DNA from: an uncultured Candidatus Kuenenia sp.
GTDB taxonomy: Bacteria; Planctomycetota; UBA11346
Assembly: GCA_964654285.1 (NCBI GenBank)
Contig: CAZZJC010000006.1
Location: 67,288 to 131,287, forward strand
DNA: 64,000 nucleotides
Direction of reading: 5' to 3'
Shown: piece by piece, positions 1-46,015 of the stretch
How positions within the stretch are numbered: position 1 is the first letter of the stretch
Layout: every line of letters starts with the position of its first letter
Program-made: the position numbers and the translations under genes
The notes under the pieces: model-generated
The model's database searches: none
Told to the model about the DNA's origin: nothing
Seen by the model: only the letters and a program-made list of their open reading frames with translations

Positions 1-594
1 ACCCAGCACGTGTTCCAACCCGGCCGCGACCGCATCGGTCGAGGTCGGGTTGCCGATCTGGTCGTCGACCACGCGCAGCGCCGGGCCGTCCTGCCGCCCG
101 ACCTTGGTCAGGGTGTGGACGAAGCTCGGCCCACCCGCGCCATACAGCCACGCGATGCGCGCAATGACGTGGTCGGGGCAATGCGCCCGCACCGCCGCTT
201 CCCCGGCCAGCTTGCTCGCGCCGTACACCGTGCGCGGCCCGGTTGCATCCCATTCGTGGTAGGGCCGGTCGAGGTCGCCGCTGAACACGTAGTCGGTGCT
301 GATCGCGACCATCCGCGCCCCGCTCTGCCGGCACGCCGCGGCGACGTTCGCCGAGCCGATCGCGTTCAGGCGGTAGGCCAGATCGCGTTCACTCTCGCAC
401 TTGTCGACCTGGGTATGCGCGGCGCAGTGCACCACCGCATCCGGCCGCACCTGCGCCAGCATGGCGGTGCAGGCGCGCGCATCGGTGATGTCGAGTTCCT
501 CGCGGTCGGTGGCGACAAGGTCATGCCGGCCCTGCCATCGGCGCAGCAACGTCCGCCCAAGCATGCCCTTGGCACCGGTGATCAGGATCTTCAT
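1..594 (-). CDS. rmlD: dTDP-4-dehydrorhamnose reductase (RmlD/RfbD); 3' end runs off the window
   Basis: Reverse-strand translation starting at the complement of ATG 592-594 gives MKILITGAKGMLGRTLL...VHCAAHTQVDKCE...YVFSG...YGASKLAGE, the RmlD Rossmann and catalytic motifs. There is no stop before the window edge. The listed plus-strand ORF 10..630 is its mirror frame. Confidence 0.85.
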   Translation of the reverse strand, partial: MKILITGAKGMLGRTLLRRWQGRHDLVATDREELDITDARACTAMLAQVRPDAVVHCAAHTQVDKCESERDLAYRLNAIGSANVAAACRQSGARMVAISTDYVFSGDLDRPYHEWDATGPRTVYGASKLAGEAAVRAHCPDHVIARIAWLYGAGGPSFVHTLTKVGRQDGPALRVVDDQIGNPTSTDAVAAGLEHVLG

Positions 595-716: not shown

Positions 717-1892
717 ATGATTCCCCGCCTGCTCGTCCACACCGTCACCCGGATCGCCGCCGGCTATCCCGTGGTGGTGCTCACCGGGCCGCGCCAGTCC
801 GGCAAGACCACGCTGGCCCGGACGTGCTTCCCCCACCTGCCCTATGTCAGCCTTGAGGACCCGCTGGAACGCACGGCCTTCCGTGCGGATCCGCGCGCCT
901 GGTTGTCGCGCTACCCGGACGGGGCGGTGCTGGACGAGGTCCAGCGTGCGCCGGATCTGCCGAGCTGGCTGCAAGGCATCGTCGACCGCGACCGCCGTCT
1001 GGGTCGGTGGGTGATCACCGGATCGCAGCAGTACCAGGTCATGGATCGGGTGACCCAGAGCCTGGCCGGCCGGGCCGCCCTGCTGGAACTGATGCCCTTC
1101 AGCCACGCCGAGCTGACTGCGGCGGGTTTGGCCCAGGCCGATCCCGCGACCGCGATCTGGACCGGCGGCTACCCTCCGCTGTACGACCGTCCGGTCGAGC
1201 CCGGTCGCTGGCTGGGCGACTACATAGCCACCTACCTGGAACGCGATGTGCGATCGATCGCCGCCGTGCGCGATCTCACCCGCTTCGCCGGTTTTCTGCG
1301 CCTGTGCGCGACCCGCACCGGACAGATGCTGAATCTGGCCAGCATGGCGGCGGAACTGGGCATCGATGCCAAGACCGCACGCGGCTGGCTGTCCGTCCTG
1401 GTCGCCGGCTACGTCGTCCACCTGCTGCCACCGCACCACGCCAACCTGGGCAAACGCATCGTCAAGCATCCCAAGCTGTACCTGCTCGATACCGGACTGG
1501 CGTGCCGCCTGCTGGCGATCGCTGATCCGGGCGCCTTGCGCACCCATCCCGCCTGGGGCGCGCTGGTCGAGACCTGGACCTTGGTCGAGGTGATCAAGGC
1601 GTTGCGCCATCGGGGCGGCAACGCAGACGGGTTGTACTACTGGCGCAGCCACGACGGTCTGGAGGTCGACCTGATCCACGAACGGGGACAGGCGCTCCAT
1701 TCCTGGGAGATCAAGGCCACGACCAGCCCCGCGCCCCACGATCAGACCGGCCTGCACCGCTTCCGCGCGCTGGTCGGCACGCGCCACGCAGGCAGCGCGC
1801 TGATCCACCTCGGCCCGGAAACCGGTGCGCAACGCGAGGTCAGCCTGGTCCCGTGGCATGGGATCGATACCGCCGTCGCAGCGATCCCCTGA
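717..1892 (+). CDS. AAA+ ATPase, DUF4143 family (COG1373-like)
   Basis: MIPRLL...PVVVLTGPRQSGKTTLAR contains a Walker A motif. The length and C-terminal region are typical of the DUF4143 ATPase family. It sits on the opposite strand between rmlC and rmlD. Confidence 0.8.
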   Translation: MIPRLLVHTVTRIAAGYPVVVLTGPRQSGKTTLARTCFPHLPYVSLEDPLERTAFRADPRAWLSRYPDGAVLDEVQRAPDLPSWLQGIVDRDRRLGRWVITGSQQYQVMDRVTQSLAGRAALLELMPFSHAELTAAGLAQADPATAIWTGGYPPLYDRPVEPGRWLGDYIATYLERDVRSIAAVRDLTRFAGFLRLCATRTGQMLNLASMAAELGIDAKTARGWLSVLVAGYVVHLLPPHHANLGKRIVKHPKLYLLDTGLACRLLAIADPGALRTHPAWGALVETWTLVEVIKALRHRGGNADGLYYWRSHDGLEVDLIHERGQALHSWEIKATTSPAPHDQTGLHRFRALVGTRHAGSALIHLGPETGAQREVSLVPWHGIDTAVAAIP

Positions 1893-1904
1893 GCCGCCCA
1901 CGTC

Positions 1905-2486
1905 TCAGATCCCGTGCACGTTCGCTGGATTCCACGCGAACAGGTCCGCGGGCGGAATGGCAGTCAGCCCGGGGAACCCCGCATCGCGGGCATTCAGGTC
2001 CGGTGCGACGCCGGTGTCGGGCCAGCGGATGCCGACGCCGGGATCATCCCAGCGCAGGCCGCGCTCGTGCTCCTTGGCCCAGTAGTCGCTGACCTTGTAG
2101 AGCACCTCGGCGGTGTCGCTGAGCACCAGGAATCCATGCGCGAAACCCTTGGGCACGAACAGCGCCCGCCGGTTCGCCGCCGTCAGTTCCGCCCCGACCC
2201 AGCGGCCGAAGGTCGGACTGCCGCGCCGCACATCGACCGCGACATCGTAGATCGCGCCGACCAGGCAGCGCACCAGCTTGTCCTGCGGCTGCCGCACCTA
2301 GTAGTGCAGCCCGCGCAGGATGCCGCGCCGCGACAGCGACTGGTTGTCCTGCACGAACGCCGCCGCGATGCCCAGGCCGGCCAGCACCTTGGCGTTGTAG
2401 TTTTCCATGAACCAGCCGCGCGCATCGCCGAACACCGCTGGTTCGAGCAGGCACACGCCGGGAATCTCGGTGTCGATGCGCTTCAT
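1905..2486 (-). pseudogene. rmlC: dTDP-4-dehydrorhamnose 3,5-epimerase (RmlC) interrupted by an in-frame TAG at 2298-2300
   Basis: Two abutting minus-strand ORFs (2298..2486 and 1905..2297) together read MKRIDTEIPGVCLLEP...[44 protein letters not shown]..., a contiguous cupin-type RmlC interrupted by a single amber codon where RmlC proteins normally have Gln. Confidence 0.7.
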
Positions 2487-3429: not shown

Positions 3430-3585
3430 CTCGCTCCCTGGTCGGGCTCAGGCAGGTCACCACTTGGGTGCGTTGACCGACCCGCCAACCAGGTCGCCCG
3501 AGACGCGTCAGGCAGGGAGGGCGTGGGCTACCCCGGCCAGCATTTCCGGAATTTCAGCGGCAAGAATTTCTGGCATCCATATCAC

Positions 3586-3936: not shown

Positions 3937-4700
3937 AGTTTCAACCGCTTGAAGAGGCACTCGGGGATGCGGGTGATGATGGCCATGATCCAACGCCAGA
4001 ACCAGCGCGTGTAGAGCACGTTCCGCTTGCGGTCGATGGCGCGCAGGATGTCCCGCGCCACCTGTTCCGGCGTGGCGACGAGCGGCGAACCTTCTTTCAG
4101 CAGACCCGCCGTCATCGGTGTGGCGACGAATCCTGGCTTGATCGTCAGCACGTGTTTGCGCTCATGGAACAGCCGGTTCCGCAAGCCTTGCAGGTAGGCT
4201 GCCAAACCGGCCTTGGTGCTGCCGTACAGGTAGTTCGATTGGCGGCCGCGATCGCCCGCTACCGAACCGATCACCGCCAGAACGCCACCTTCAACCAGCG
4301 ATGGCACCAACGCCTCGCAGAGGACCACTACTGAACTGAAGTTCACCTGGATCTGGCGCAGCGCCAAGGTGGCATCCTGTTGCGCAGCACGTTGATCGGC
4401 CATGGTGCCGTAGGCGATGAGCACGGCTTGGACCCCATGCGGCGCCAAGGTACGCAACCGCGCTAGCAGATCACCGTGCTGCGCCGGATCGCCAGGATCG
4501 CAGGTGATCGCCACGGCTTCGACCGCTCCCCGCAGCCGAGCATCGGCCGCCACGCGTTCGCCTTCGGCGGCATCGCGCGACGTGAGGATCACGCGGGCGC
4601 CGCGCCCGGCCCAGGCGCGGACACATGCCCGGGCGATGCCGGATGTGGCGCCGATGACCAGGATGGAAGCAGCCTTTGGATTTCCGGTTGCATCAGTCAC
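3933..4700 (-). CDS. dprE2: Short-chain dehydrogenase; DprE2-like decaprenylphospho-2'-keto-ribose reductase homolog
   Basis: VTDATGNPKAASILVIGATSGIARA...NYLYGSTKAGLAAYLQGL...WRWIMAIITRIPECLFKRLKL aligns along its whole length with mycobacterial DprE2 ([22 protein letters not shown]...NFVYGSTKAGLDGFYLGL...[20 protein letters not shown]). A GTG start is proposed at 4698-4700; the listed ORF extends to an upstream ATG at 4775. Confidence 0.8.
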   Translation of the reverse strand: MTDATGNPKAASILVIGATSGIARACVRAWAGRGARVILTSRDAAEGERVAADARLRGAVEAVAITCDPGDPAQHGDLLARLRTLAPHGVQAVLIAYGTMADQRAAQQDATLALRQIQVNFSSVVVLCEALVPSLVEGGVLAVIGSVAGDRGRQSNYLYGSTKAGLAAYLQGLRNRLFHERKHVLTIKPGFVATPMTAGLLKEGSPLVATPEQVARDILRAIDRKRNVLYTRWFWRWIMAIITRIPECLFKRLKL

Positions 4701-4796
4701 GAAGGTTGCACCCCTGATATTGAATTTGGTGGTAGAGCCGTGGCAGGATTCTTGGCAGAAATGACGATCGATCAACGTGCACGCGCATCCGTACGT

Positions 4797-10055: not shown

Positions 10056-13000
10056 GGGTGGTCCTGGGTTGCTTCATATAGCCCGCCTGAAACAAGCAAA
10101 GCCGTGATCTGTTCCGGCGCATGGCGCTGACGCACCCATGCGGCAGCTTGGCCCACCGTTCCCAGGTCAAGAGTGGCCCTGACGGCTGGGGCGAATTCGT
10201 GGGAATCTGCCCAGTCGCGTCCGCCACCGCTGCGTTGGGTGAGGTCGACAGTGACACCACAGCGACGGTTGACTAGAGTCGGGCGGCCAAGCGACCACGC
10301 CTCGAGGATGACCAGAGACAGGCTTTCATTGGGAGAAGGATTGATGAGCAGACCACAACCGGCTATGGCGTCCCACCGACTCGTCTCGTCTACGAAGCCC
10401 AATGCCTTCACGTCAGGATGATCGGGAACCTGCATCGCAGCCCTGCCGATCAAGACCAGGGGAGGAAGACCGGCACCGGCCGCCTGGGCAGCCAAGTAAT
10501 GGTCGAATAGAAGGTCGCACCCTTTGCCTGGGTCGATACGGCCCAGGTAGAGTATGTAACCGCGTTGCAGTCCATGACGGACCAAAAAGCGATCACTGTC
10601 CACGTTGGTAGGCGGTTGGATGGCAGCTGAGACCACAGGCCCATCCACGCTGAGGTCATGGAAACGCATCCGCACGTGCCTGCGTTCCCATTCACTGAGG
10701 TACCAGAACGCCTTGGGCAGGCGGAAAAGACGGTCCCAAAAGCCAAAACGCATGCACCATTCGTCATGAGCGCAGGGTGCCAGGATGGCACGATCAGCAA
10801 CGAGTGGCAGACCAAACCATGTGGTCGCATAGAGGTAGCCCACAAATATCACGGCATCGTATTGGTTTCCGTTGCGACGCAGGTGGTCGTTGAGGGAACT
10901 GCTCACCGGCCCTTGCAAACGCATCCATCGGTCGGCGTCGTCTGGTCCGGCATTCTCAAGTCCAGTTTGTACAAGTTCAGCACTGCACGCATCGAAGGCA
11001 GTGACGTTGCGGGGAATATCGACCTTGAAACGTCGCACCCGGACGCCCTCAACCTCGTCATCGCCAACTTGATAAAAATTCTCCCAGGTCATGTAATCAC
11101 GGGCGCAAGTTGTTAGTACCTCGACTTGGTTTCGTCCCAGACAACTACCCACCAGTCTGGCCCAAGCCAGGGCGAGGGCCTCGGCGCCGCCAGCAACCTC
11201 GCGCCCACAACGGGTGACCACCACAGCAACTTTAGGCGGAAAAGCCGCCTGCAGGGCCGACAACCAGATCGGACGAACAACAGCTGGAAGAAAGTCACGC
11301 AGTCGCTTTCGTTGGCCGATCAGGATCCGGCGGCGGTCTGCGGGTTCCATTGCGGCGGCGATGGCCGTCGCAATGGCGGTATCGTCTGCGTCTGGCGGCA
11401 AGCACACGCCAGCCCCACCCAAAGTCTCGCCCACTGCGGCATGGTTGAGGGCAACTACCGGCACTTCAAAGGCCATGGCTTCGACGAGCGGGACACCAAA
11501 GCCCTCGTGTTCTGACACTGATACGTAGACATCGGCGGCACGATACGCGGCAGCCAATTGAGCCTGGGTGGCCTTGGTAATTATGCGCACCTGTCCTGTC
11601 AGATCCTCGGCCGTGAGGTCGGCGAGAACAAAGCGAGACCAGTCATCACCAGCGTCAAAATGGCCAACTAAAATGAGACTGGCCGGTATTTTATTCGCGC
11701 GTAACCGGCGAAGGATGGCCAACAATCGATCCTGGCGTTTGTTGGGCGCTAAGCGCCCAACAAAAAGAAGGCGCGGCGACGGCAGTAAGAGCAATTCGGA
11801 TTCAAGAGCGTTCTCGGGCGGTTGACACCAGGTCTCGGGCTGAAAAGGGAGTGTCAGGATGTCACCGGCTGGCGGCAGATGGACGGCACGTGCAAACTCG
11901 TCCCGATTGAACACGGAATCGTGAAATCGTATCGGGAATGCCGCTGCCAATGCCGGCAAGGCTTCAATGCCGGCCTGCAGATTACTGGCTGTCTGAGGGT
12001 CATGCGCGAAGAACCGTGGCGGTGTGATATTGTGGTCAAGCAAAGCCTTGGGTCCGCGATATGAGACCGCCCAATCGGTCGCTGGCGAACCTATGCTGTG
12101 ATGGTAAATTATCGGTTCATCGGTAAGCGAAACCGACGGTAGCGGTAAAACTCGATCAGCTAGTGCAGGGTCGAGGTAGCGGGCGATCAGTTTGCTGTCC
12201 ATTCCCCAACTGCGAAACCAACTTTGTACTGCGATGGCCTCGGAACTAATGGCATCACCAGGGCGGCAGGCGGTCAGCACTTGGTGCAAGTGACGCCTGA
12301 TCAACGGGAATCCTGGCGGTCGGCTAAGGGAGTCGACCAGAGTAATAATGCGGTCAATGACCTTGTCCCAACTCGACAACTCGCGTCCAGTAGCTTGACC
12401 GACCTTGCCCCATGCCGCCAGTTTCTCTGCGTCTGCGTCGGCTAGTTCGCCAATGATTCGTTGCCAGTCATTATCCGAATTAGCCATGGGAGCGCCGGCT
12501 ATCGCCGCCGCCTCGGCGGTGGCGTTACACCGCGCATCGACTGCAACCGGCCGGCCTAGATGCCAGGCCTCCATGAGGACCCGTGAGTAGGCTTCGTGGC
12601 GGCTTGGAACTGCAAGGGCTAGGCAATTAGCCAGTAGCCAGTTGCGGGTGCCATTGTCGACTAAACCAAGATCATGGACGCAATTTGGCAGATCGGCATA
12701 GCTGCGCCCATCGCTACCCGGTCCAGCAAAGACAAGGTCGAGCCCGCAACCACCTGCCGCCCGCCAGCGGAGGAAGGCGTCAGTTAGAACATTGCAGCCC
12801 TTGGAGGGATCGCGACGTCCGAGACAAAGCAAAAATCGTCCAAGGCCAGAAGTCGCCGCAGGGGGCGAGGCTGGAATTGCCAACGTCTCGGGTTCGATAC
12901 CAGTGCCAACCATGTGCAGACGACCATGCAAACCGGCCCCGAGAAGCCGGATAGCCAGCGAGGCCTCGCCAGTGCTGATCGCGGCTATAGCAGGTACCGA

Positions 13001-29808: not shown

Positions 29809-30924
29809 ATGTCCATGTCCACGACCGCTGTCTCTCCATCGGCCGGATTGGCCACCGATCGCGCCACGCTCGCCGCCTGGCTGGCGTGCGAGGACGACGT
29901 CCGGCTGGAGGACCTCTGGGCGGCGGCCGATGCGGTGCGGCGCGAGCATGTCGGCGATGACGTCCACCTGCGCGGGCTGATCGAGATCTCGAACCACTGC
30001 GTGCGGCAGTGCGCGTACTGCGGCCTGGCGGGCAGTCGCGCACCGGAACCGGCCGGACCGCTGCCGCGTTATCGCATGACGCACGACGAGATCCTCGCCT
30101 GCGCGCACCAGGCGCGCGGGTACGGCTACGGCACGGTGGTGCTGCAAGGCGGCGAGGACTACGGCCTTACCGCCGACTGGGTCGCGGCGGTGGTGCGGGC
30201 GATCAAGGCCGAGACCGGGTTGTCGGTGACGCTCAGCCTGGGCGAGCGGCGCGAGGACGAATTGCAGGCCTGGCGCGCGGCCGGGGCGGATCGCTACCTG
30301 CTGCGCTTCGAGACCGCGAACCGGGACCTCTACCGCCGCATCCATCCGGATCTCGGCCGCGAGGTGTCCGACCGGCTGGCGCTGCTGCAGCGGTTGCGCG
30401 CGATCGGCTACGAGATCGGCACCGGCATCATGGCCGGCATCCCGGGGCAGACGTTCGCGGATCTGCTCGACGACCTGGAGACCTTCCGCCGGTTGGATCC
30501 CGACATGATCGGCATCGGGCCGTACCTGCCGCATCCGCAGACCCCGCTCGGCCGCGAGGCGATCGGCATCTTCGCCGACACGCCGGGGCAGGTGCCCTCC
30601 AGCGAACGGATGACCTGCATCCTGGTGGCGCTGACGCGGCTGGTCTGCCCCGAGGCGAACCTGCCCGCGACGACCGCGCTGGCGACGATCAACAAGCGCG
30701 ATGGGCGCGAGAACGGCCTGCGCCGGGGGGCGAACATCCTGATGCCGAACCTGACCCCGGTGCGCTATCGCGCCCTCTACGAGATCTATCCCGCCAAGGC
30801 CTGCGTCGACGAGACCGCGGAGCAGTGCCACGGCTGCCTGGACGGCCGCATCCGCGCGCTCGGCCGGGTGCCGGGGCGCGGGCCGGGCAGCCGGCGGCGG
30901 TCGCTGGCCGGGGGAGGCGCATGA
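29809..30924 (+). CDS. hydE: [FeFe]-hydrogenase maturase HydE (radical SAM, BioB-like)
   Basis: LRGLIEISNHCVRQCAYCGL is the CX3CX2C radical-SAM motif in a HydE-type context. VLQGGEDYGL and GANILMPNLTPVRYRALYEIYP are HydE-like C-terminal blocks. The start is placed at M51 of the listed ORF. The stop overlaps the hydG start (ATGA). Confidence 0.75.
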   Translation: MSMSTTAVSPSAGLATDRATLAAWLACEDDVRLEDLWAAADAVRREHVGDDVHLRGLIEISNHCVRQCAYCGLAGSRAPEPAGPLPRYRMTHDEILACAHQARGYGYGTVVLQGGEDYGLTADWVAAVVRAIKAETGLSVTLSLGERREDELQAWRAAGADRYLLRFETANRDLYRRIHPDLGREVSDRLALLQRLRAIGYEIGTGIMAGIPGQTFADLLDDLETFRRLDPDMIGIGPYLPHPQTPLGREAIGIFADTPGQVPSSERMTCILVALTRLVCPEANLPATTALATINKRDGRENGLRRGANILMPNLTPVRYRALYEIYPAKACVDETAEQCHGCLDGRIRALGRVPGRGPGSRRRSLAGGGA

Positions 30925-32366
30925 CCTCTGCCGCGATCGGCACCGACTTCATCGACGATGCGTATCTCGAAGGCCTGCTCGCTGAGACCCCGGCGGATCC
31001 CGGGCACGTGCGCGAGATCATCGCGAAAAGCCTGGCGAAGCAGGCGCTGACGGTCGAGGAGACCGCCGTGCTGCTGACCATCCGCGACCCCGCCCTCAAG
31101 GCCGAGATCCAGGAAGGGTCGCGCCGGCTGAAGCGCCAGGTCTACGGCAACCGCATCGTGCTCTTCGCGCCGCTCTACGTCGGCAATCTGTGCGTGAACG
31201 ATTGCACCTACTGCGGCTTCAAGCGCTCGAACCACGACGCGGTGCGCACCACGCTCGACCGCGACGCCCTGGTCAGCCAGGTGAAGGCCCTGGAGGACGC
31301 CGGGCACAAGCGCCTGATCCTGGTCTTCGGCGAGCATCCGCGCTACGACGCCGCATTCATCGCCGACAGCGTGCGCACGGTGTACGGGGTCACCAGCGGC
31401 GCGACCGGCGAGATCCGCCGGGTGAACGTCAACGCAGCGCCGTTCGACATCGACGGCTTCCGCACCGTGAAGGCGGCCGGCATCGGCACCTGGCAGGTCT
31501 TCCAGGAGACCTACCACCACGCGACCTACGCCGCGATGCATTCCGCCAGGCAGGACCGGCCGGCGCCCGGTGTGAATTCGGCGCAACGGCCCAAAAGCGA
31601 TTACCTCTGGCGCCTGTCCGCCTTCGACCGCGCGATGCAGGCGGGCATCGACGATGTCGGCCTGGGCGCGCTGTTCGGCCTGTACGACTGGCGCTTCGAG
31701 GTGCTCGGCCTCGTCCGCCATGCCCTGCACCTGCAGGAATGCTTCGGCGTCGGGCCGCACACCATCAGCTTCCCGCGCCTGCAACCGGCCTCGGGGGTCA
31801 CCCTCGACCCGCGCTGGGCGGTCTGCGACGACGACTTCCGCCACCTCGTCGCGGTACTGCGCCTCGCGGTGCCGTACACCGGGCTGATCCTGACCGCACG
31901 CGAACCGGTGGCGATCCGCAATGAACTGATGGAATTCGGGGTGAGCCAGATCGATGGCGGCACCCGCATCGGCCTCGGCGCCTACACCGCCGGCGACGAC
32001 GGGCAGCACCTCGAACGCGAGCAGTTCCGCATCGGCGACAGCCGCAGCCTGGACCAGGTCGTGCAGGAACTCATCGCCCGCCACGAACTGCCGAGCTTCT
32101 GCACCGCCTGCTACCGCCTCGGCCGCACCGGCGAGCATTTCATGGAGTTCGCCATCCCGGGCTTCATCAAGCGCTTCTGCACCCCGAACGCGCTCACCAC
32201 CTTGCAGGAATACCTCGTCGACTACGCCCCGCCGGACACTCGCGCCCAGGGCCAGGCCGTGATCGCGGCGGAACTGGCCCGCATGGAAGACGGCGACCTC
32301 AAGCGCGAACTGGTCGCGCGGCTTGAACGCATCCGCACCACGGCGGCGCGCGACCTGTATTTCTGA
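30921..32366 (+). CDS. hydG: [FeFe]-hydrogenase maturase HydG (radical SAM tyrosine lyase)
   Basis: YVGNLCVNDCTYCGFKRSN is a ThiH/HydG N-terminal radical-SAM motif. The C-terminus carries SFCTACYRLGRTGEHFMEFAIPGFIKRFC, a CX2CX22C motif that distinguishes HydG from ThiH. It is embedded in the listed 785-aa ORF, and the start is taken at MTSAAIGTDF. Confidence 0.8.
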   Translation: MTSAAIGTDFIDDAYLEGLLAETPADPGHVREIIAKSLAKQALTVEETAVLLTIRDPALKAEIQEGSRRLKRQVYGNRIVLFAPLYVGNLCVNDCTYCGFKRSNHDAVRTTLDRDALVSQVKALEDAGHKRLILVFGEHPRYDAAFIADSVRTVYGVTSGATGEIRRVNVNAAPFDIDGFRTVKAAGIGTWQVFQETYHHATYAAMHSARQDRPAPGVNSAQRPKSDYLWRLSAFDRAMQAGIDDVGLGALFGLYDWRFEVLGLVRHALHLQECFGVGPHTISFPRLQPASGVTLDPRWAVCDDDFRHLVAVLRLAVPYTGLILTAREPVAIRNELMEFGVSQIDGGTRIGLGAYTAGDDGQHLEREQFRIGDSRSLDQVVQELIARHELPSFCTACYRLGRTGEHFMEFAIPGFIKRFCTPNALTTLQEYLVDYAPPDTRAQGQAVIAAELARMEDGDLKRELVARLERIRTTAARDLYF

Positions 32367-32613
32367 GCCCAGCGGGGCTTGCGCCCCAGCCCGACTGCGC
32401 CGCTCTGCGGCTGGCATGCTGCGCATGTCCCCGCTGCGCGGGGATCGACCTGTGGCGACGGTGGCTGCGCCACCGAGTTCCGCTGCGCGGAACCAAGCCC
32501 GTCCCCGCTCGCTCGCTTCGCTCCTCGGGGGATTGCTCCTCGCGGGGCGCTGCCCCGCTACGCCCCGCCAGGGGCCCTCGCCCCTGGACCCGCACGGACC
32601 CAACCAGTGCGAA

Positions 32614-32636
32614 AGTTTGACTTCCTGAGTCAAACT
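32614..32636. promoter_or_regulatory. Perfect 8-bp inverted repeat (agtttgac-N7-gtcaaact), candidate MarR operator
   Basis: agtttgacttcctgagtcaaact lies about 115 bp upstream of the MarR-family gene that starts at 32751. Confidence 0.4.
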
Positions 32637-43065: not shown

Positions 43066-44355
43066 ATGCCGAGAACGCCCATCCTTGCCTGCGTGGCGCT
43101 GGCCGCCGTCCTCGCGGCCGCAGCGGGTGAACCGCCGCCCGTCGCGCCCGCCCAGGATCCGACCGTGAGCGGACCCGAGAACCGCATCGACCGCGAGATC
43201 CGCCGGGTCAACCAGACCACCATCACCTTCGTCGAGGTCTTCGTCCGCGCGCTCGAACGCCAGCGCGACCTCGAGGAGCGCGGCCGGCCGCTGCCCGCCC
43301 GCGCCGACATGCCGCGCTTCCTCCTCGAATGCCTGGAGGAGCTCACCGACGAGGAGCTGATCATCCAGAAGGCGACCGAGCTCGGGATCAAGCCCGACAG
43401 CGAACGCATCAAGCGCGAAGTGCTGGAGGACGCCAGGCGCATCGGCCGCGGGATCGACCAGCGTTCGCTCGTCATGGAGCGCAAGCGGCGCGAACGCACG
43501 ACCACCATCAACTACGTGCTGGGCTGGTTCGAGCAGCGCACCTCGCTCGTCACGCCCGAGGCGATGATCGACGAATACCGGCGCTCCAGCGCGGAATTCA
43601 AGCGGCCGGCGCGGGCGCACGTGCTGCAGATCTGCGTCGCCCCCGCCGGGGCGGCCGAACGCGCCGCCGTCGCGCGCGACCAGGCGGATCTGCTCAAGCG
43701 CGCCCAGCGCGCCGGCGTCGGGGCCGAGGTCAAGGCCCTCGCCGACGCCTGCCTCGCGGAATACCTCGAGGCCGCACCGGCGCGGCAGGCGGAACTGCTC
43801 GACCGCCTGACCGCCGGACTGGCCGACCTCGCCGGCCGCGAGGGCCTGTCGGCCGATGATGCCGCCCTGGCGGCCACGGCCCGCAAGCTGCGCGAGGCCG
43901 CCGCCAACCTGCGCGATGAGGCCCAGACCCGCGCCGCCCTCGAAGCGCTGCGCCAGCGTCTCGACGGCCTGGAACCCGCCGCGCGCGAGGCGGAGTTCCG
44001 CGCCGCCGCCAAGGCCATGTCGAGCGGGCCGAACGCCGCCGAGGGCGGCGACCTCGGCGCCACCGTCGAACCCGGCACGTATTCCGCCGAGTTCGACGCC
44101 CAGGCCTTCTCCATCCCGGTCGGCCGGGTCTCGCCGGTCTTCACCGCGCGCGGCCTGCTCTGCCTGATCCTGGTGCGCGAGCGCCGCGAGGCGCGCGTGC
44201 TCTCCTTCGACGAGGTGTCCGGGGGGCTGGATCGCAGCCTGACCCAGGCGCGGCGCGAGGCGCTGCGCACCGCGATCGTGCGCGTGCTGCGCTCCCGCGC
44301 GCAGATCAGCGACCTCGATCTCAGCAGCCTGCGCGAACTGCCGCCGCCCCGTTAG
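43066..44355 (+). CDS. SurA/PpiD-like periplasmic chaperone with a parvulin-type PPIase domain
   Basis: A signal peptide is followed by a SurA_N-like helical region, then GGDLGATVEPGTYSAEFDAQAFSIPVGRVSPVFTARGLLCLILV, a parvulin rotamase motif. Confidence 0.7.
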   Translation: MPRTPILACVALAAVLAAAAGEPPPVAPAQDPTVSGPENRIDREIRRVNQTTITFVEVFVRALERQRDLEERGRPLPARADMPRFLLECLEELTDEELIIQKATELGIKPDSERIKREVLEDARRIGRGIDQRSLVMERKRRERTTTINYVLGWFEQRTSLVTPEAMIDEYRRSSAEFKRPARAHVLQICVAPAGAAERAAVARDQADLLKRAQRAGVGAEVKALADACLAEYLEAAPARQAELLDRLTAGLADLAGREGLSADDAALAATARKLREAAANLRDEAQTRAALEALRQRLDGLEPAAREAEFRAAAKAMSSGPNAAEGGDLGATVEPGTYSAEFDAQAFSIPVGRVSPVFTARGLLCLILVRERREARVLSFDEVSGGLDRSLTQARREALRTAIVRVLRSRAQISDLDLSSLRELPPPR

Positions 44356-44522
44356 CAGCGGGGTTCCACCCTGCCTGTTTTTTCAGCGGGGTTCCACCCC
44401 GCCACGCCCCGCCAGGGCTCTGCCCTGGACCCGGATTGCCCGGAAGGGCTGTTAGCCGCGGGGTTCCACCCCGCCACGCCCCGCCAGGGCTCTGCCCTGG
44501 ACCCGGATTGCCCGGAAGGGCT
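44351..44522. repeat. Tandem direct repeat, 72-bp unit, two full copies plus one diverged partial copy, internally palindromic
   Basis: The unit is gttagccgcggggttccaccccgccacgccccgccagggctctgccctggacccggattgcccggaagggct. Identical copies lie at 44386-44450 and 44458-44522, with a partial copy at 44351-44385. It contains the hairpin cagggcTCTgccctg. Confidence 0.9.
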
Positions 44523-44526
44523 CACC

Positions 44527-44772
44527 GCGCGTCCTTGCGTTTGCCACGCGTTTGCCCAATCGGGCGGGGGGGCGCTGCGCTGCCCCGCCGGGGTCTGATG
44601 TCAGTTTGTTCGGCCTGCTGCGCGTCCTTGCGTTTGCTACGCGGTTGCCCGTTCGGGCGGGGGCGCTGCGCTGCCCCGCCGGGGTTGGATGTCAGTTTGT
44701 TCGGCCTGCCGCGCGTCCTTGCGTTTGCCACGCGGTTGCCCGTTCGGGCGGGGGGCGCTGCGCTGCCCCGCC
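44527..44772. repeat. Tandem direct repeat, ~92-bp unit × 2.7 copies
   Basis: The unit is gcgcgtccttgcgtttgccacgcggttgcccgttcgggcgggggcgctgcgctgccccgccggggtctgatgtcagtttgttcggcctgc(t/c). Copies start at 44527, 44620 and 44711, the last truncated. There are a few SNPs between copies. The cgcg...cgcg and G-rich stems are palindromic. Confidence 0.9.
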
Positions 44773-44790
44773 TACGTCGATATCTGATTT

Positions 44791-45759
44791 TCAGGCAGGA
44801 CGCGCTGTGGCGAGGCAGTCGCGGATGAGGGTGTCGAGACCGCGTTCGGGCGTCCAGCCGGTCAGGCGCGCGATCTTCGCCAGGGCGGGGAGACGGCGGC
44901 GCATGTCCTCGAAACCGCCGCCCGGGTAGGCGCTGTGGTAGGGCACCAGGCGCACCTCGGCGCGGCTGCCGGCGAGCGCGAGCACGCGGTGCGCGAGGGC
45001 GAGGATGCTGATCTCCTCGGCGCCGCCGATGTTCACCACCTCGCCCACCGCCGCCGGCGTGTCGACCAGGCGGCGCACCGCCGCGACCGCGTCGGCGACA
45101 TGGCAGAAGGTGCGGGTCTGCTGGCCGTCGCCGTGCACGTCGAGCGGCTTCCCGGCCGCCGCAGCGGCGCAGAAGCGCGGCAGCACCATGCCGTAGGCGC
45201 CGCTCTGGCGCGGGCCGGCGACGTTGAAGAAGCGACCGACGACGACCGGCAGGCCGCGTTCGCGGTGCCAGGCGAGGGCGAGGAACTCGTCGATCAGCTT
45301 CGACGCGGCGTAGCTCCAGCGCTGCAGCCGGCTCGCGCCCAGGACGCAGTCGTCGTCCTCGTTGAACGGCACCCGATCCTGCTTGCCGTAGGCCTCGCTG
45401 GTCGAGGCGATGAAGACCGGCGCGCGGCCGTGCACCTCGGCGGCGCGCAGGACGACCTCGGTGCCGCGCACGTTGGTGACGATCGAGGCGACCTGGCGCT
45501 CCAGGATCCGGCGCACGCCCACCGCCGCCGCGAGGTGGATGATGCGGTCGCAGCCGCGGCAGGCCTCGTCCATCGCCAGCTCATCGCACACGGAACCATG
45601 CACGATGGTCAGGCGCGGCTCGCCCTGGTGCTGCGCCAGGTTGGCGAGCGACCCGGTCGAGCAGTCATCGAGCACCACCGCCTCGTGCCCGTCCGCAAGA
45701 AGCGCGTCGACCAGGTGCGAGCCGATGAACCCGGCTCCGCCGGTGACGAGGTAGCGCAT
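44791..45759 (-). CDS. NAD-dependent epimerase/dehydratase (UDP-sugar epimerase or decarboxylase type SDR)
   Basis: MRYLVTGGAGFIGSHLVDALL is the Rossmann fold; ...YAASKLIDE is the YxxxK motif. The listed 414-aa ORF has a spurious N-terminal extension. Confidence 0.85.
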   Translation of the reverse strand: MRYLVTGGAGFIGSHLVDALLADGHEAVVLDDCSTGSLANLAQHQGEPRLTIVHGSVCDELAMDEACRGCDRIIHLAAAVGVRRILERQVASIVTNVRGTEVVLRAAEVHGRAPVFIASTSEAYGKQDRVPFNEDDDCVLGASRLQRWSYAASKLIDEFLALAWHRERGLPVVVGRFFNVAGPRQSGAYGMVLPRFCAAAAAGKPLDVHGDGQQTRTFCHVADAVAAVRRLVDTPAAVGEVVNIGGAEEISILALAHRVLALAGSRAEVRLVPYHSAYPGGGFEDMRRRLPALAKIARLTGWTPERGLDTLIRDCLATARPA

Positions 45760-46015
45760 GGCGGGTTCGTACCAGCGGGCCACTGCTGCGCCAGTTGGAT
45801 GAGCGCGACGCCGTCTTCGCCCGAGCACAGCCCTTTGCCAGTACGTGGCCCGCACGCACCTCGTCAAGGCTCGCGACCAGCCGCGGGCCCTGGCGCACGC
45901 CCCAACCTTCCACAGGGAAATTAGTTCCGCATCGAAACATATTGCACCACGGGCCGCGTCGCTATTGTTTCGACACGACACCAATAAAGGTGATCCCAGC
46001 CCAACGAGGTCTCCC

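Follow-up and report, generated by a model that had tools for sequence, protein, structure and literature searches.

A tandem array between two convergent genes

In the 64,000-nt stretch of DNA analysed here (the window), a gene for a PPIC-type peptidyl-prolyl isomerase (PPIase, + strand) and a gene for a sugar epimerase (- strand) converge on an intergenic gap of 435 nt (44356-44790), which is filled by a repeat array. The locus raises the question of what these repeats are, how they arose and what they may do at the ends of two genes. A preliminary description had taken the two genes for a SurA-like PPIase and a UDP-sugar epimerase in convergent orientation, and these identities were found to be correct (PPIC rotamase; NAD-dependent epimerase/dehydratase). 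In Pfam, the PPIase ORF matched PPIC Rotamase (3.7e-09), with SurA_N_3 below cutoff. The stop codon of the gene is TAG at 44353-44355, and an independent contig calls the identical 429-aa product. An exact look-up of the epimerase protein returned no record.

Tandem Repeats Finder resolved the repeats into two abutting arrays, as had been described (72 bp ×2+ and ~92 bp ×2.7): one at 44386-44522 (period 72, 1.9 copies, 100% matches, score 274) and one at 44525-44772 (period 91, 2.7 copies, 92% matches, 1% indels, score 431). The best remaining score elsewhere in the window was 76. The '2+' is justified by a partial third copy of the first 17-nt hairpin at 44358-44374. Altogether, 44358-44772 is composed of a 28-nt unit of a hairpin and T6, two identical 72-nt copies of unit A and 2.7 copies of a 91- to 93-nt unit B (Table 1), and the B copies are spaced 93 nt and then 91 nt apart. 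Identity was 100% between A1 and A2, as stated in the preliminary description, and 97% between B2 and B3. The 92-bp copies had been said to differ by about 3 SNPs; B1 and B2 differ by more, namely 6 substitutions and a 2-nt indel, and 2-3 substitutions and a 1-nt indel were found both for B2/B3 and for B1/B3.

Hairpins h1 and h2 are 17 nt long and h5 is 27 nt long, h5 being h1 with its loop CGCTG duplicated. Searches with sub-patterns of 43 nt and 27 nt matched the array copies only, at a chance expectation of 0.00. All units and loop polarities are direct, head-to-tail, and alternation of the BIME type was not seen. The array is not a CRISPR, in agreement with the first reading, as the units abut head-to-tail with no unique spacers and the sole spacer-like segment (27-30 nt in B), seen only in this window, is itself repeated. 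An origin of this B-B spacer as a duplicated 3' flank of the epimerase gene was rejected (shuffle p = 0.33-0.81).

The junction between A1 and A2 (GGGCTGTTAGCCGCGGGG) differs from that between A2 and B (GGGCTCACCGCGCG), and therefore at least two A copies must exist. The independent Logan contig L029 matches the sequence of the T unit and was 100% identical as far as the inside of A1, where it breaks, as expected at a repeat. Comparable arrays were assembled by independent projects (L019, L020, L022 and L039), and L031 and L037 agree with each other.

Table 1. Features of the window discussed in the text
Feature	Position	Strand	Composition and remarks
Second family member, 'long type'	32367..32605	+	About 9 hairpins ending in the h1-linker-h2 module; begins at the base after TGA
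Upstream gene, PPIC-type peptidyl-prolyl isomerase	43066..44355 (ORF 43051/43066-44355)	+	Weak SurA_N-like N-terminus; ORF list and Pfam
Boundary motif GTTAGCA	44351..44357	+	Includes the stop codon; again as GTTAGCC at 44451-44457 (A1/A2 junction)
Unit T	44358..44385	+	Hairpin h1' (GCGGGGTTCCACCCTGC, 7 pairs), then CTGTTTTTTC; begins 2 nt past the stop codon; terminator scan
Unit A1	44386..44457	+	72 nt; h1 44386-44402, linker CACGCCCCG, h2 44412-44428, tail ACCCGGATTGCCCGGAAGGGC, junction TGTTAGCC
Unit A2	44458..44524	+	65 nt identical to A1 (h1 44458-44474, h2 44484-44500), then CA/C into B
Unit B1	44525..44617	+	93 nt; CGCGT..ACGCG hairpin, GCCC-NNNN-GGGC hairpin, h5 44563-44589, 27-30-nt spacer
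Unit B2	44618..44708	+	91 nt; h5 44654-44680
Unit B3	44709..44772	+	64-nt core without the spacer; h5 44746-44772; ends 18 nt before the epimerase stop codon
Convergent gene, NAD-dependent sugar epimerase/dehydratase family	44791..45765	-	Stop codon 44791-44793; ORF list and domain matches

The units belong to a dispersed family of palindromic elements

Beyond what had been described, the units of the array belong to a dispersed family of palindromic elements that abut stop codons, and a second member of this family is present in the window. A and B are the halves of a single composite element found at several unrelated gene ends. A related MAG holds at least four other such loci, and the tandem layout is different at each. 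The composite was found in L019, L020, L022 and L009, plus twice in L039, and the layouts seen were (AB)2, A-B-B and T-T-A-B-A-B. Moreover, two 28-nt units of h1 and TTTT homologous to the T unit are present in L019. Between loci and genomes, identity was 94-98% for A and 75-98% for B, and arrays were found at 6 or more loci.

The h1-linker-h2 core of A is common to a wider, structurally conserved family. The 21-nt core was found at 23 loci in 9 Planctomycetota MAGs and on 9 metagenome contigs; up to 7 loci were counted per MAG (7 in one and 5 in another), these per-genome counts covering only loci around exact 21-mer core matches. Two family loci lie in the 64-kb window, the second of them downstream of an ORF (30009-32366) that is unrelated to the PPIase. 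Every copy seen was extragenic and at a distinct locus, and element size across the family was 130-640 nt.

Five genome matches outside Planctomycetota were bare 21- to 22-nt matches without hairpins and were attributed to chance, and five viral-contig matches were all one coding 21-mer that had no element architecture. BLAST of the array in distant mode gave no match among PLSDB plasmids. A metagenome scan with a 24-mer specific to A/B gave no match, indicating that the A/B subtype is narrowly distributed. In a distant relative of the PPIase (L042, 43% identity), the array is missing and another gene is the neighbour, and the array is therefore lineage-specific.

The elements lie on the sense strand, adjacent to stop codons

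Wherever the upstream gene was identifiable, the element was found on the sense strand of that gene and started no more than a few bases from the stop codon. The distance between the core and the stop codon of the upstream same-strand ORF was fixed for each subtype, at 176-192 nt in 8 long-type loci, 123-135 nt in 8 short-type loci and 14-15 nt in 3 A/B loci. On its other side, the element lay 5 to 597 nt from the neighbouring gene. In the MFE folds, the first paired base was at most 4 nt from the stop codon (18/18 loci). TGA, TAG and TAA were all found as adjoining stop codons. The upstream genes are unrelated housekeeping genes (among them IF-2, HflX, PurH, a sigma54 activator and an ABC ATPase), and a reading of them as transposase or TnpB genes (omega-RNA-like) was rejected. 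Orthologous positions were retained across species-level MAGs, at IF-2 in L016/L027 and at a porin-like gene in L003/L007. Convergent ORFs flank each of the five A/B-type arrays. Many members of the family are located between co-directional genes, and the downstream gene begins 10-70 nt past the element in L030, L035, L036 and L013.

Read-through, recoding or a coding extension beyond the stop codon was rejected. The median number of open codons after the stop was 97, 87 and 85.5 in the three frames, with no frame preferred. The frame of the conserved module is inconsistent, with all three in use, and the indels of the module are not multiples of 3.

The longer members share a conserved nested fold

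The fold of the longer members is nested and comprises multiple hairpins, and its compensatory covariation is strong. In the covariation test, 97% of cells were paired compared to 35-47% in slid controls, and double changes were found in 21 pairs compared to 3-5 in slid controls (0/500 shuffles). In the long-range helix, 5 of 6 pairs covary. The nested architecture is conserved, with an outer helix closing two to four small hairpins, followed by a conserved g-h1-h2 domain, and the sequence of the outer helix is wholly different between subfamilies. The A/B type has neither the outer helix nor the g hairpin, and covariation of the A/B composite was not significant (3 pairs, covariation term +2.24). 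As near-perfect Watson-Crick palindromes, the hairpins fold as well on one strand as on the other. Alifold of both strands gave -89.7 and -95.8 for the long type, and -51.0 and -47.9 for A/B, and the strand test (G·U versus A·C, alifold and single-sequence energies) showed a symmetric structure. The hairpins fold alike on both strands and therefore do not separate an RNA-level from a DNA-level role.

The repeats had been suggested to act as bidirectional terminators. This is supported in part, as the hairpin and T6 at 44358-44384 fit the intrinsic-terminator consensus on the + strand in a terminator scan. A U-tract follows only one of about nine hairpins in the window array and none on the - strand, and the orthologous array in L039 has no T-run at the position of the T unit. 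The A, B and long-type hairpins have no U-tract. A hairpin followed by a T-run was also found in some units of L019, L020 and L009, and T-runs after hairpins occur on the sense strand only.

A repeated small-RNA structure had been a further suggestion, to be checked against Rfam. The whole 64-kb window gave 0 Rfam hits at the gathering threshold, and at E<=10 the two elements of the window gave only noise, far under gathering scores. No promoter-like site was found in the array. These results, together with the A/B covariation, give no support to a small-RNA gene. A tRNA/tmRNA scan of the window found none.

The array has been rearranged in a close relative

The syntenic locus of a close relative (L039) has flanks 88-93% identical to those of the window, and the arrangement of the epimerase orthologue is unchanged. 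The array itself is re-shuffled and 639 nt long. The layout in the window is T-A-A-B-B-B, compared to a different order of the same modules in L039, and the array therefore turns over fast. The window array arose in place, with a layout unlike that of the orthologous array. The boundary motif (GTTAGCA/GTTAGCC) occurs four times in L039, and in the window the A1/A2 junction repeats the stop-codon flank of the PPIase gene. Repeat copies were more alike within one locus than between loci. Two copies were found in L031 and L037 compared to one in L034, and the number of tandem units thus varies between relatives at several dispersed loci, in the manner of a MIRU-like VNTR. The L039 array also holds a further insert bounded by inverted repeats. 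The recent expansion that had been proposed for the array is borne out by the identities among its copies, and the region behaves like the proposed hotspot, with rearrangement between such closely similar flanks.

Discussion

The region is best explained as a locally amplified mosaic of T (hairpin and T-run), A (two hairpins and a tail) and B (three hairpins), three modules of one dispersed, lineage-specific family of GC-rich palindromes in high-GC Planctomycetota. The family is similar in kind to the REP/BIME elements of E. coli. We favour the reading that it is a REP/BIME-like family of 3'-end hairpins, amplified in place by slippage or unequal recombination, and that it probably serves as terminator and RNA-decay barrier. 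Identical hairpins would promote replication slippage or unequal recombination, leading to minisatellite-like gain and loss of units. The modules would be transcribed as the 3'UTR of the upstream gene, where the stacked stable hairpins may form a leaky terminator, with a fully canonical site in the T unit alone, as well as a barrier to 3'->5' exonucleases. The convergent epimerase transcript would meet the hairpins as a roadblock, and the two genes would be insulated from each other. Such a mode of action, suggested by analogy, would be that of the REP/BIME arrays of E. coli, which are documented leaky terminators and exonuclease barriers (PMC3733652; bioRxiv 10.64898/2026.03.23.713779). REP325 works as a terminator and also stabilises mRNA, and the presence of REPs between two convergent genes is correlated with a higher expression of the pair (bioRxiv 10.64898/2026.03.23.713779). 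Most REPs follow an ORF and separate genes that are unidirectional or convergent (PMC3733652).

REP/BIME units are imperfect palindromes of about 20-50 bp. In E. coli and other Proteobacteria, the elements are strictly extragenic and dispersed in many copies, and they occur singly or in mosaic clusters of 1-12 units that differ between strains (PMC3733652; bioRxiv 10.64898/2026.03.23.713779). The family described here likewise consists of short, GC-rich palindromic units of conserved sequence, single or in variable mosaic clusters, and located downstream of ORFs or between convergent genes; the copies seen were all extragenic and at distinct loci. At every informative locus, in contrast to REP/BIME, the element is sense-oriented to the upstream gene and touches the stop codon. 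Furthermore, the longer members form a nested fold with several branches and a long-range helix, and a GTAG tag is present on one hairpin of the widespread variant only and is absent from the A units. No RAYT was found in the ~290 kb examined, and the family differs from REP/BIME in sequence as well as in phylum (uncultured high-GC Planctomycetota). The palindromic units of BIMEs are in alternating orientation, and those of the present arrays are all direct.

The MIRU-VNTR loci of Mycobacterium, a high-GC genome, are head-to-tail units of 40-100 bp at many dispersed intergenic loci, strain-variable in number and with boundaries that overlap flanking stop codons. The present arrays are alike in unit length, in intergenic dispersal, in unit number varying between relatives and in their stop-overlapping boundaries. 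However, MIRUs have no hairpin stacks and lie within operons, where their small ORFs are translationally coupled to the neighbours; the present elements are hairpin stacks that use all three frames indiscriminately. Intrinsic terminators share the GC-rich hairpin directly 3' of the stop codon, the U-tract of the T unit and the restriction of T-runs to the sense strand. Unlike them, most hairpins of the family have no U-tract, 130-640 nt is far more than termination needs, and the elements are multi-copy with a conserved primary sequence. A sequence-conserved, repeated terminator motif, TRIT, has reportedly been found in mycobacteria.

The elements could instead be selfish, non-autonomous mobile DNA with no host function, either REPs/REPINs moved by a RAYT-type Y1 transposase or a MITE, whose insertion is merely tolerated at 3' ends and whose arrays are by-products of transposase processing or slippage. 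This is possible but rather doubtful. REPINs of Pseudomonas are inverted doublets, and the present arrays are direct. A likeness to GTAG-tagged REPs/REPINs (RAYT; Di Nocera et al. 2013, PMC3733652) is found in the dispersal of the family and in the widespread variant, the antisense strand of which reads GTAG and then h1 (CCCCGCTACG; GTAG-CGGGGCAGCGCCCCGC), a tagged palindrome like the substrates of RAYT. In R. baltica, a planctomycete, both GTAG REPs and numerous tyrosine transposases have been described (PMC3733652). The multi-copy spread over loci and genomes, the insert bounded by inverted repeats in L039, and the A units, which at unrelated loci and in another genome are more alike (94-98%) than the orthologous flanking genes (88-93%), also favour mobility. 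On the other hand, the A units here carry GTGG (CCCCGCCACG) in place of GTAG, and a tag of the GTAG/CGTC type is absent from the other hairpins of the family. Strict sense orientation and abutment to stop codons of all three kinds are unexpected from tolerance or from a fixed tetranucleotide target, and the retention of orthologous positions between species-level MAGs and the compensatory evolution of the stems also argue against selfish DNA. A MITE is not indicated: the ends of long-type and A/B elements are not mutually inverted beyond generic GCGGGG/CCCCGC palindromes (71-75%), and the 5' edge, where any of the stop codons may stand, shows no duplication of the flank. In the ~290 kb of DNA examined, neither a transposase nor another vehicle of dispersal was found, and a regex for HUH and Y motifs (HUH/Y1 transposase) matched nothing; a REPtron check found that the inverted pair in L013 flanks a dCTP-deaminase-like gene, and both are weak negatives.

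A function at the level of translation would make the family (long, short and A/B types) a new class of structured 3'-end RNA, which we regard as unlikely. In this model, an outer helix at or inside the stop codon would be melted by the terminating ribosome, whose arrival would remodel the fold and so sense complete translation, coupling it to termination, decay or control of the next cistron, or to pausing and trans-translation. The A/B arrays would be amplified derivatives in which the number of units tunes the effect. The distance of at most 4 nt between stop codon and first paired base, the conservation of the nested architecture around an outer helix whose sequence differs completely per subfamily, and the co-directional genes that begin shortly past the element are consistent with the model. 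In line with the model, REPs of E. coli located within about 15 nt of a stop codon reportedly stall ribosomes and trigger tmRNA tagging. However, the structure is symmetric in the strand test, the A/B type is without the outer helix and the g hairpin, and the same observations would also suit a terminator or stabiliser that is passive and has simply become packed against the stop codon.

A role at the DNA level, in which the palindromes extrude cruciforms or bind gyrase or nucleoid proteins and thereby absorb positive supercoiling between convergent genes, appears very unlikely. Such a supercoil-absorbing role was proposed for the BIMEs of E. coli, and it would agree with the strand-symmetric structure and with the convergent ORFs around all five A/B-type arrays. 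It is opposed by the many members between co-directional genes, and orientation to the upstream gene and stop abutment have no obvious rationale in topology. Moreover, no chromosome-organising role was found for REP325 in E. coli (bioRxiv 10.64898/2026.03.23.713779).

Lastly, that the tandem copies are an assembly artefact or a collapsed or expanded repeat absent from the real genome is scarcely credible, because the B copies are told apart by SNPs and indels, the junctions differ, L029 agrees and independent projects hold similar arrays, two of them concordant, even though the short-read contigs L029, L040 and L041 all end within the first A unit and the identity of A1 with A2 makes the exact number of A copies the least secure detail.

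Work on small dispersed palindromic repeats is extensive for a few Proteobacteria but has hardly touched Planctomycetota, a phylum known mostly through metagenomes. The present family is a clean natural experiment, given its invariable sense orientation flush with any stop codon, its compensatory evolution including that of the long-range helix, the orthologous gene ends that keep elements across species, and its quick amplification and reshuffling. If the hairpin stacks are tunable terminators and stabilisers, the number of units would be a fast, promoter-independent dial for the expression of the flanking genes. If the elements are selfish, such exact placement would suggest that targeting or selection follows an unusual mechanism. 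Short-read assemblies break at arrays of this kind, as in the three independent contigs that stop within unit A. In uncultured planctomycetes, the arrays could be used as strain markers of the VNTR type.

Organization of the array

Two long, abutting tandem-repeat arrays had been reported between convergent genes for a SurA-like PPIase and a UDP-sugar epimerase, and this description was found to be correct: Tandem Repeats Finder delimited both arrays, which abut, and all remaining tandem repeats of the 64-kb window scored 76 or less. The domains and stop positions of the two genes agreed with the reported flanks. In a pattern search, 43-nt and 27-nt sub-patterns were confined to the array (0.00 expected by chance). 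The modules are ordered T-A-A-B-B-B'. In B, h5 is h1 with its loop CGCTG duplicated, and the spacer was seen in this window only; its derivation from the epimerase flank was rejected (p = 0.33).

The copies had been described as well preserved, which holds for A1 and A2, which are identical; the "about 3 SNPs" between 92-bp copies does not, as B1 and B2 differ by six substitutions and a 2-nt indel. At the A1/A2 junction, GTTAGCC followed by h1 is a copy of the PPIase gene end, stop codon included (GTTAGCA followed by h1), which shows that the duplication arose in place. The proposal of a bidirectional terminator was borne out in part: T resembles an intrinsic terminator, but it was the sole such site in the region in a terminator scan.

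Features of the array, its flanks and related loci (window positions unless a contig is named)
Feature	Position	Strand	Description
PPIC-rotamase protein (PPIase)	stop TAG 44353-44355	+	weak SurA_N-like similarity
T	44358-44385		hairpin GCGGGGTTCCACCCTGC then CTGTTTTTTC; starts 2 nt past PPIase stop
Additional partial copy of first hairpin	44358-44374
Tandem array 1	44386-44522		period 72, 1.9 copies, 100% identity, score 274
Tandem array 2	44525-44772		period 91, 2.7 copies, 92% identity, score 431
NAD-dependent epimerase/dehydratase	stop 44791-44793	-
A			h1 (GCGGGG-TTCCA-CCCCGC), linker CACGCCCCG, h2 (CCAGGGC-TCT-GCCCTGG), tail ACCCGGATTGCCCGGAAGGGC
B			CGCGT...ACGCG hairpin, GCCC-NNNN-GGGC hairpin, h5, spacer 27-30 nt
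Diverged h1-linker-h2 copy	32542-32590
Long-type element	32367-32605 (to ~32658)		directly after stop of unrelated radical-SAM-like ORF (30009-32366)
Palindrome	~32612-32632		GTTTGACT-TCCTG-AGTCAAAC, just 3' of long-type element
L039 insert	4517-4710		lower G+C; perfect 16-nt inverted repeats CTGGGGATTGGCCATT / AATGGCCAATCCCCAG, h1 hairpins outside
L026 h1-h2 linker	~2100-2146		five tandem copies of CCCCGCTACG
L031 duplication	11440-11920		period 229 nt
L037 duplication	1600-2080		period 229 nt
L034	5270-5480		one copy
L013 long-type copies	216-363	+	inverted pair, 1.4 kb apart
	1749-1902	-

A dispersed family of palindromic repeats

A sensitive search of the window detected the diverged h1-linker-h2 copy. 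When the 21-nt core shared with A was scanned against one genome per species (GTDB), 28 loci were found, 23 of them in nine high-GC Planctomycetota MAGs with at most seven per MAG; the five in other phyla were rejected as bare 21-22-nt matches without hairpins. Nine contigs were gained in a further scan, of metagenomes. In the MAG CAMCMZ01, B-like sequence came immediately after A at four loci (L019, L020, L022 and L009), in layouts that differed at each (T-T-A-B-A-B, A-B'-A-B, A-B-B and a variant). These arrangements show that A and B together make up a single composite element of approximately 135 nt, each being one half, and that amplification of its parts is habitual in the family. An A/B-specific 24-mer had no match in JGI metagenomes, so this subtype is narrowly distributed. 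The family consists of dispersed palindromic repeats not described before, as far as the searched literature and tools show; the suggested Rfam scan matched neither the array nor the 32367-32605 element to any family.

In another subtype, the whole-element duplication in L031 and L037 was assembled identically in two projects, compared to a single copy at the orthologous locus L034; this is copy-number variation. The expanded linker of L026 indicates that even the 10-nt linker of the family undergoes slippage. The palindrome beside the long-type element also follows elements in L010 and L026; it may be an additional module, or else an operator or promoter element. The inverted copies of L013 were considered as flanks of a transposase; this was rejected, since a dCTP-deaminase-like protein is encoded between them. 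The MAG CAMCMZ01 is titled 'Candidatus Kuenenia stuttgartiensis', and its loci (L009, L010, L018-L020, L022 and L026) have 63-71% G+C. Kuenenia has roughly 41%, and the label or binning therefore looks wrong.

Placement at stop codons

At every locus with an identifiable upstream gene, the element was on the sense strand and abutted the stop codon (TGA, TAG or TAA). The distance from stop to core was fixed for each subtype: 176-192 nt in the long type (8 loci), 123-135 nt in the short type (8 loci) and 14-15 nt in the A/B type (3 loci). The far-side gene lay at a variable 5-597 nt. In MFE folds, the first paired base was at most 4 nt from the stop codon at 18 of 18 loci. The genes that precede the elements have housekeeping roles and are unrelated (the window's radical-SAM enzyme, HflX, IF-2, PurH, a response regulator, a sigma54 activator, YicC, an ABC ATPase and GspE), and the native C-termini of their products look intact. 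Two pairs of occupied loci are orthologous between MAGs (L016/L027 at IF-2 and L003/L007 at a porin-like gene), and the element can therefore outlast speciation. The five A/B arrays were all flanked by convergent ORFs; other members separate co-directional genes, and there the following start codon is at 10-70 nt.

Secondary structure and covariation

For the long type, nine copies (this window and six MAGs) were aligned, giving a consensus of 11 helices. Paired cells amounted to 97.0% and pairs changed on both sides to 21, compared to 35-47% and 3-5 in slid-partner controls, respectively, and none of 500 column shuffles matched the observed values. The long-range helix closing the small-hairpin junction covaried at five of six positions, and quite different sequences take its role in other subfamilies (CGGGTCTG/CAGACCCG, CGGGGCCGC/GCGGCCCCG and CTGTATTCGTCC/GGACGAATACAG). 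The inner hairpins differ in their stems and share the loop context GC-TGC-GC. The 32367-32605 element, which shares 78-87% identity with its counterparts in several further MAGs, has approximately nine hairpins with strong compensatory covariation, including the long-range helix. The A/B composite gave a plausible consensus fold with only three covarying pairs and an unfavourable covariation term, because its copies are too alike. For both elements, folding was equally good on the two strands.

Interpretation

The best fit is a REP/BIME-like palindromic family seated at the 3' ends of genes, of which this array is a locally amplified member. In E. coli, arrays of REPs serve as terminators and at the same time stabilise mRNA, and where REPs lie between convergent genes, expression of both tends to be higher (bioRxiv 10.64898/2026.03.23.713779; PMC3733652). 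By analogy, a terminator/roadblock function like that in E. coli is most likely; the array would act in the 3'UTR as stacked leaky terminators and as roadblocks to exonucleases, insulating the convergent genes. Strictly speaking, the array is no BIME: its units are direct rather than alternating, and they carry GTGG, whereas the GTAG tag is restricted to the widespread variant, next to h1.

A purely selfish element is possible, but strict sense orientation and abutment to any of three stop codons are hard to square with it, and neither retention at orthologous sites nor compensatory evolution is easily selfish. It is unlikely that the family is a translation-coupled structured RNA with the stop codon embedded in an outer helix. 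Coding or read-through, viral and small-RNA gene readings were rejected, the last having been raised in the preliminary description; CRISPR, already dismissed there, was rejected too; an omega-RNA-like association was rejected because the upstream genes are unrelated. The placement, flush with the stop and always sense, and the nested covarying fold are worth following up.

Dynamics of the PPIase-epimerase locus

The PPIase recurs in identical form on L029, an independent short-read contig, and has a 90% identical orthologue (P0002) on contig L039, from a close relative. On L039, synteny is kept (kinase-OmpA-PPIase -> <- epimerase), with DNA identities of 88% and 93% in the flanks; the gap, of 639 nt, is differently organised: a 30-nt unit (h1 + CAYGCCGTTAGCA), A-B, a degenerate A, an insert, 2.4 copies of the 30-nt unit and A-B. 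The insert, approximately 195 nt long and h1-flanked, has 16-nt inverted repeats at its ends and resembles a MITE-type insertion into the array. In L042, a relative with 43% identity, the array is absent and the neighbouring gene is another one.

Copies within a locus were the most alike (A1 = A2; B2/B3, 97%; Ba/Bb of L019, 98%); A units of unrelated loci were 94-98% identical. These similarities and the rearrangement in L039 point to a young, local and fast-changing array whose modules are conserved family-wide, in agreement with the recent expansion initially proposed. Identical hairpins probably gave rise to the amplification, through slippage or unequal recombination. Three independent Logan contigs, L029 (ending at 3454), L040 and L041 (both at 4362), end inside the first A, 50-80 nt past the PPIase stop; repeats of this kind break short-read assemblies systematically.
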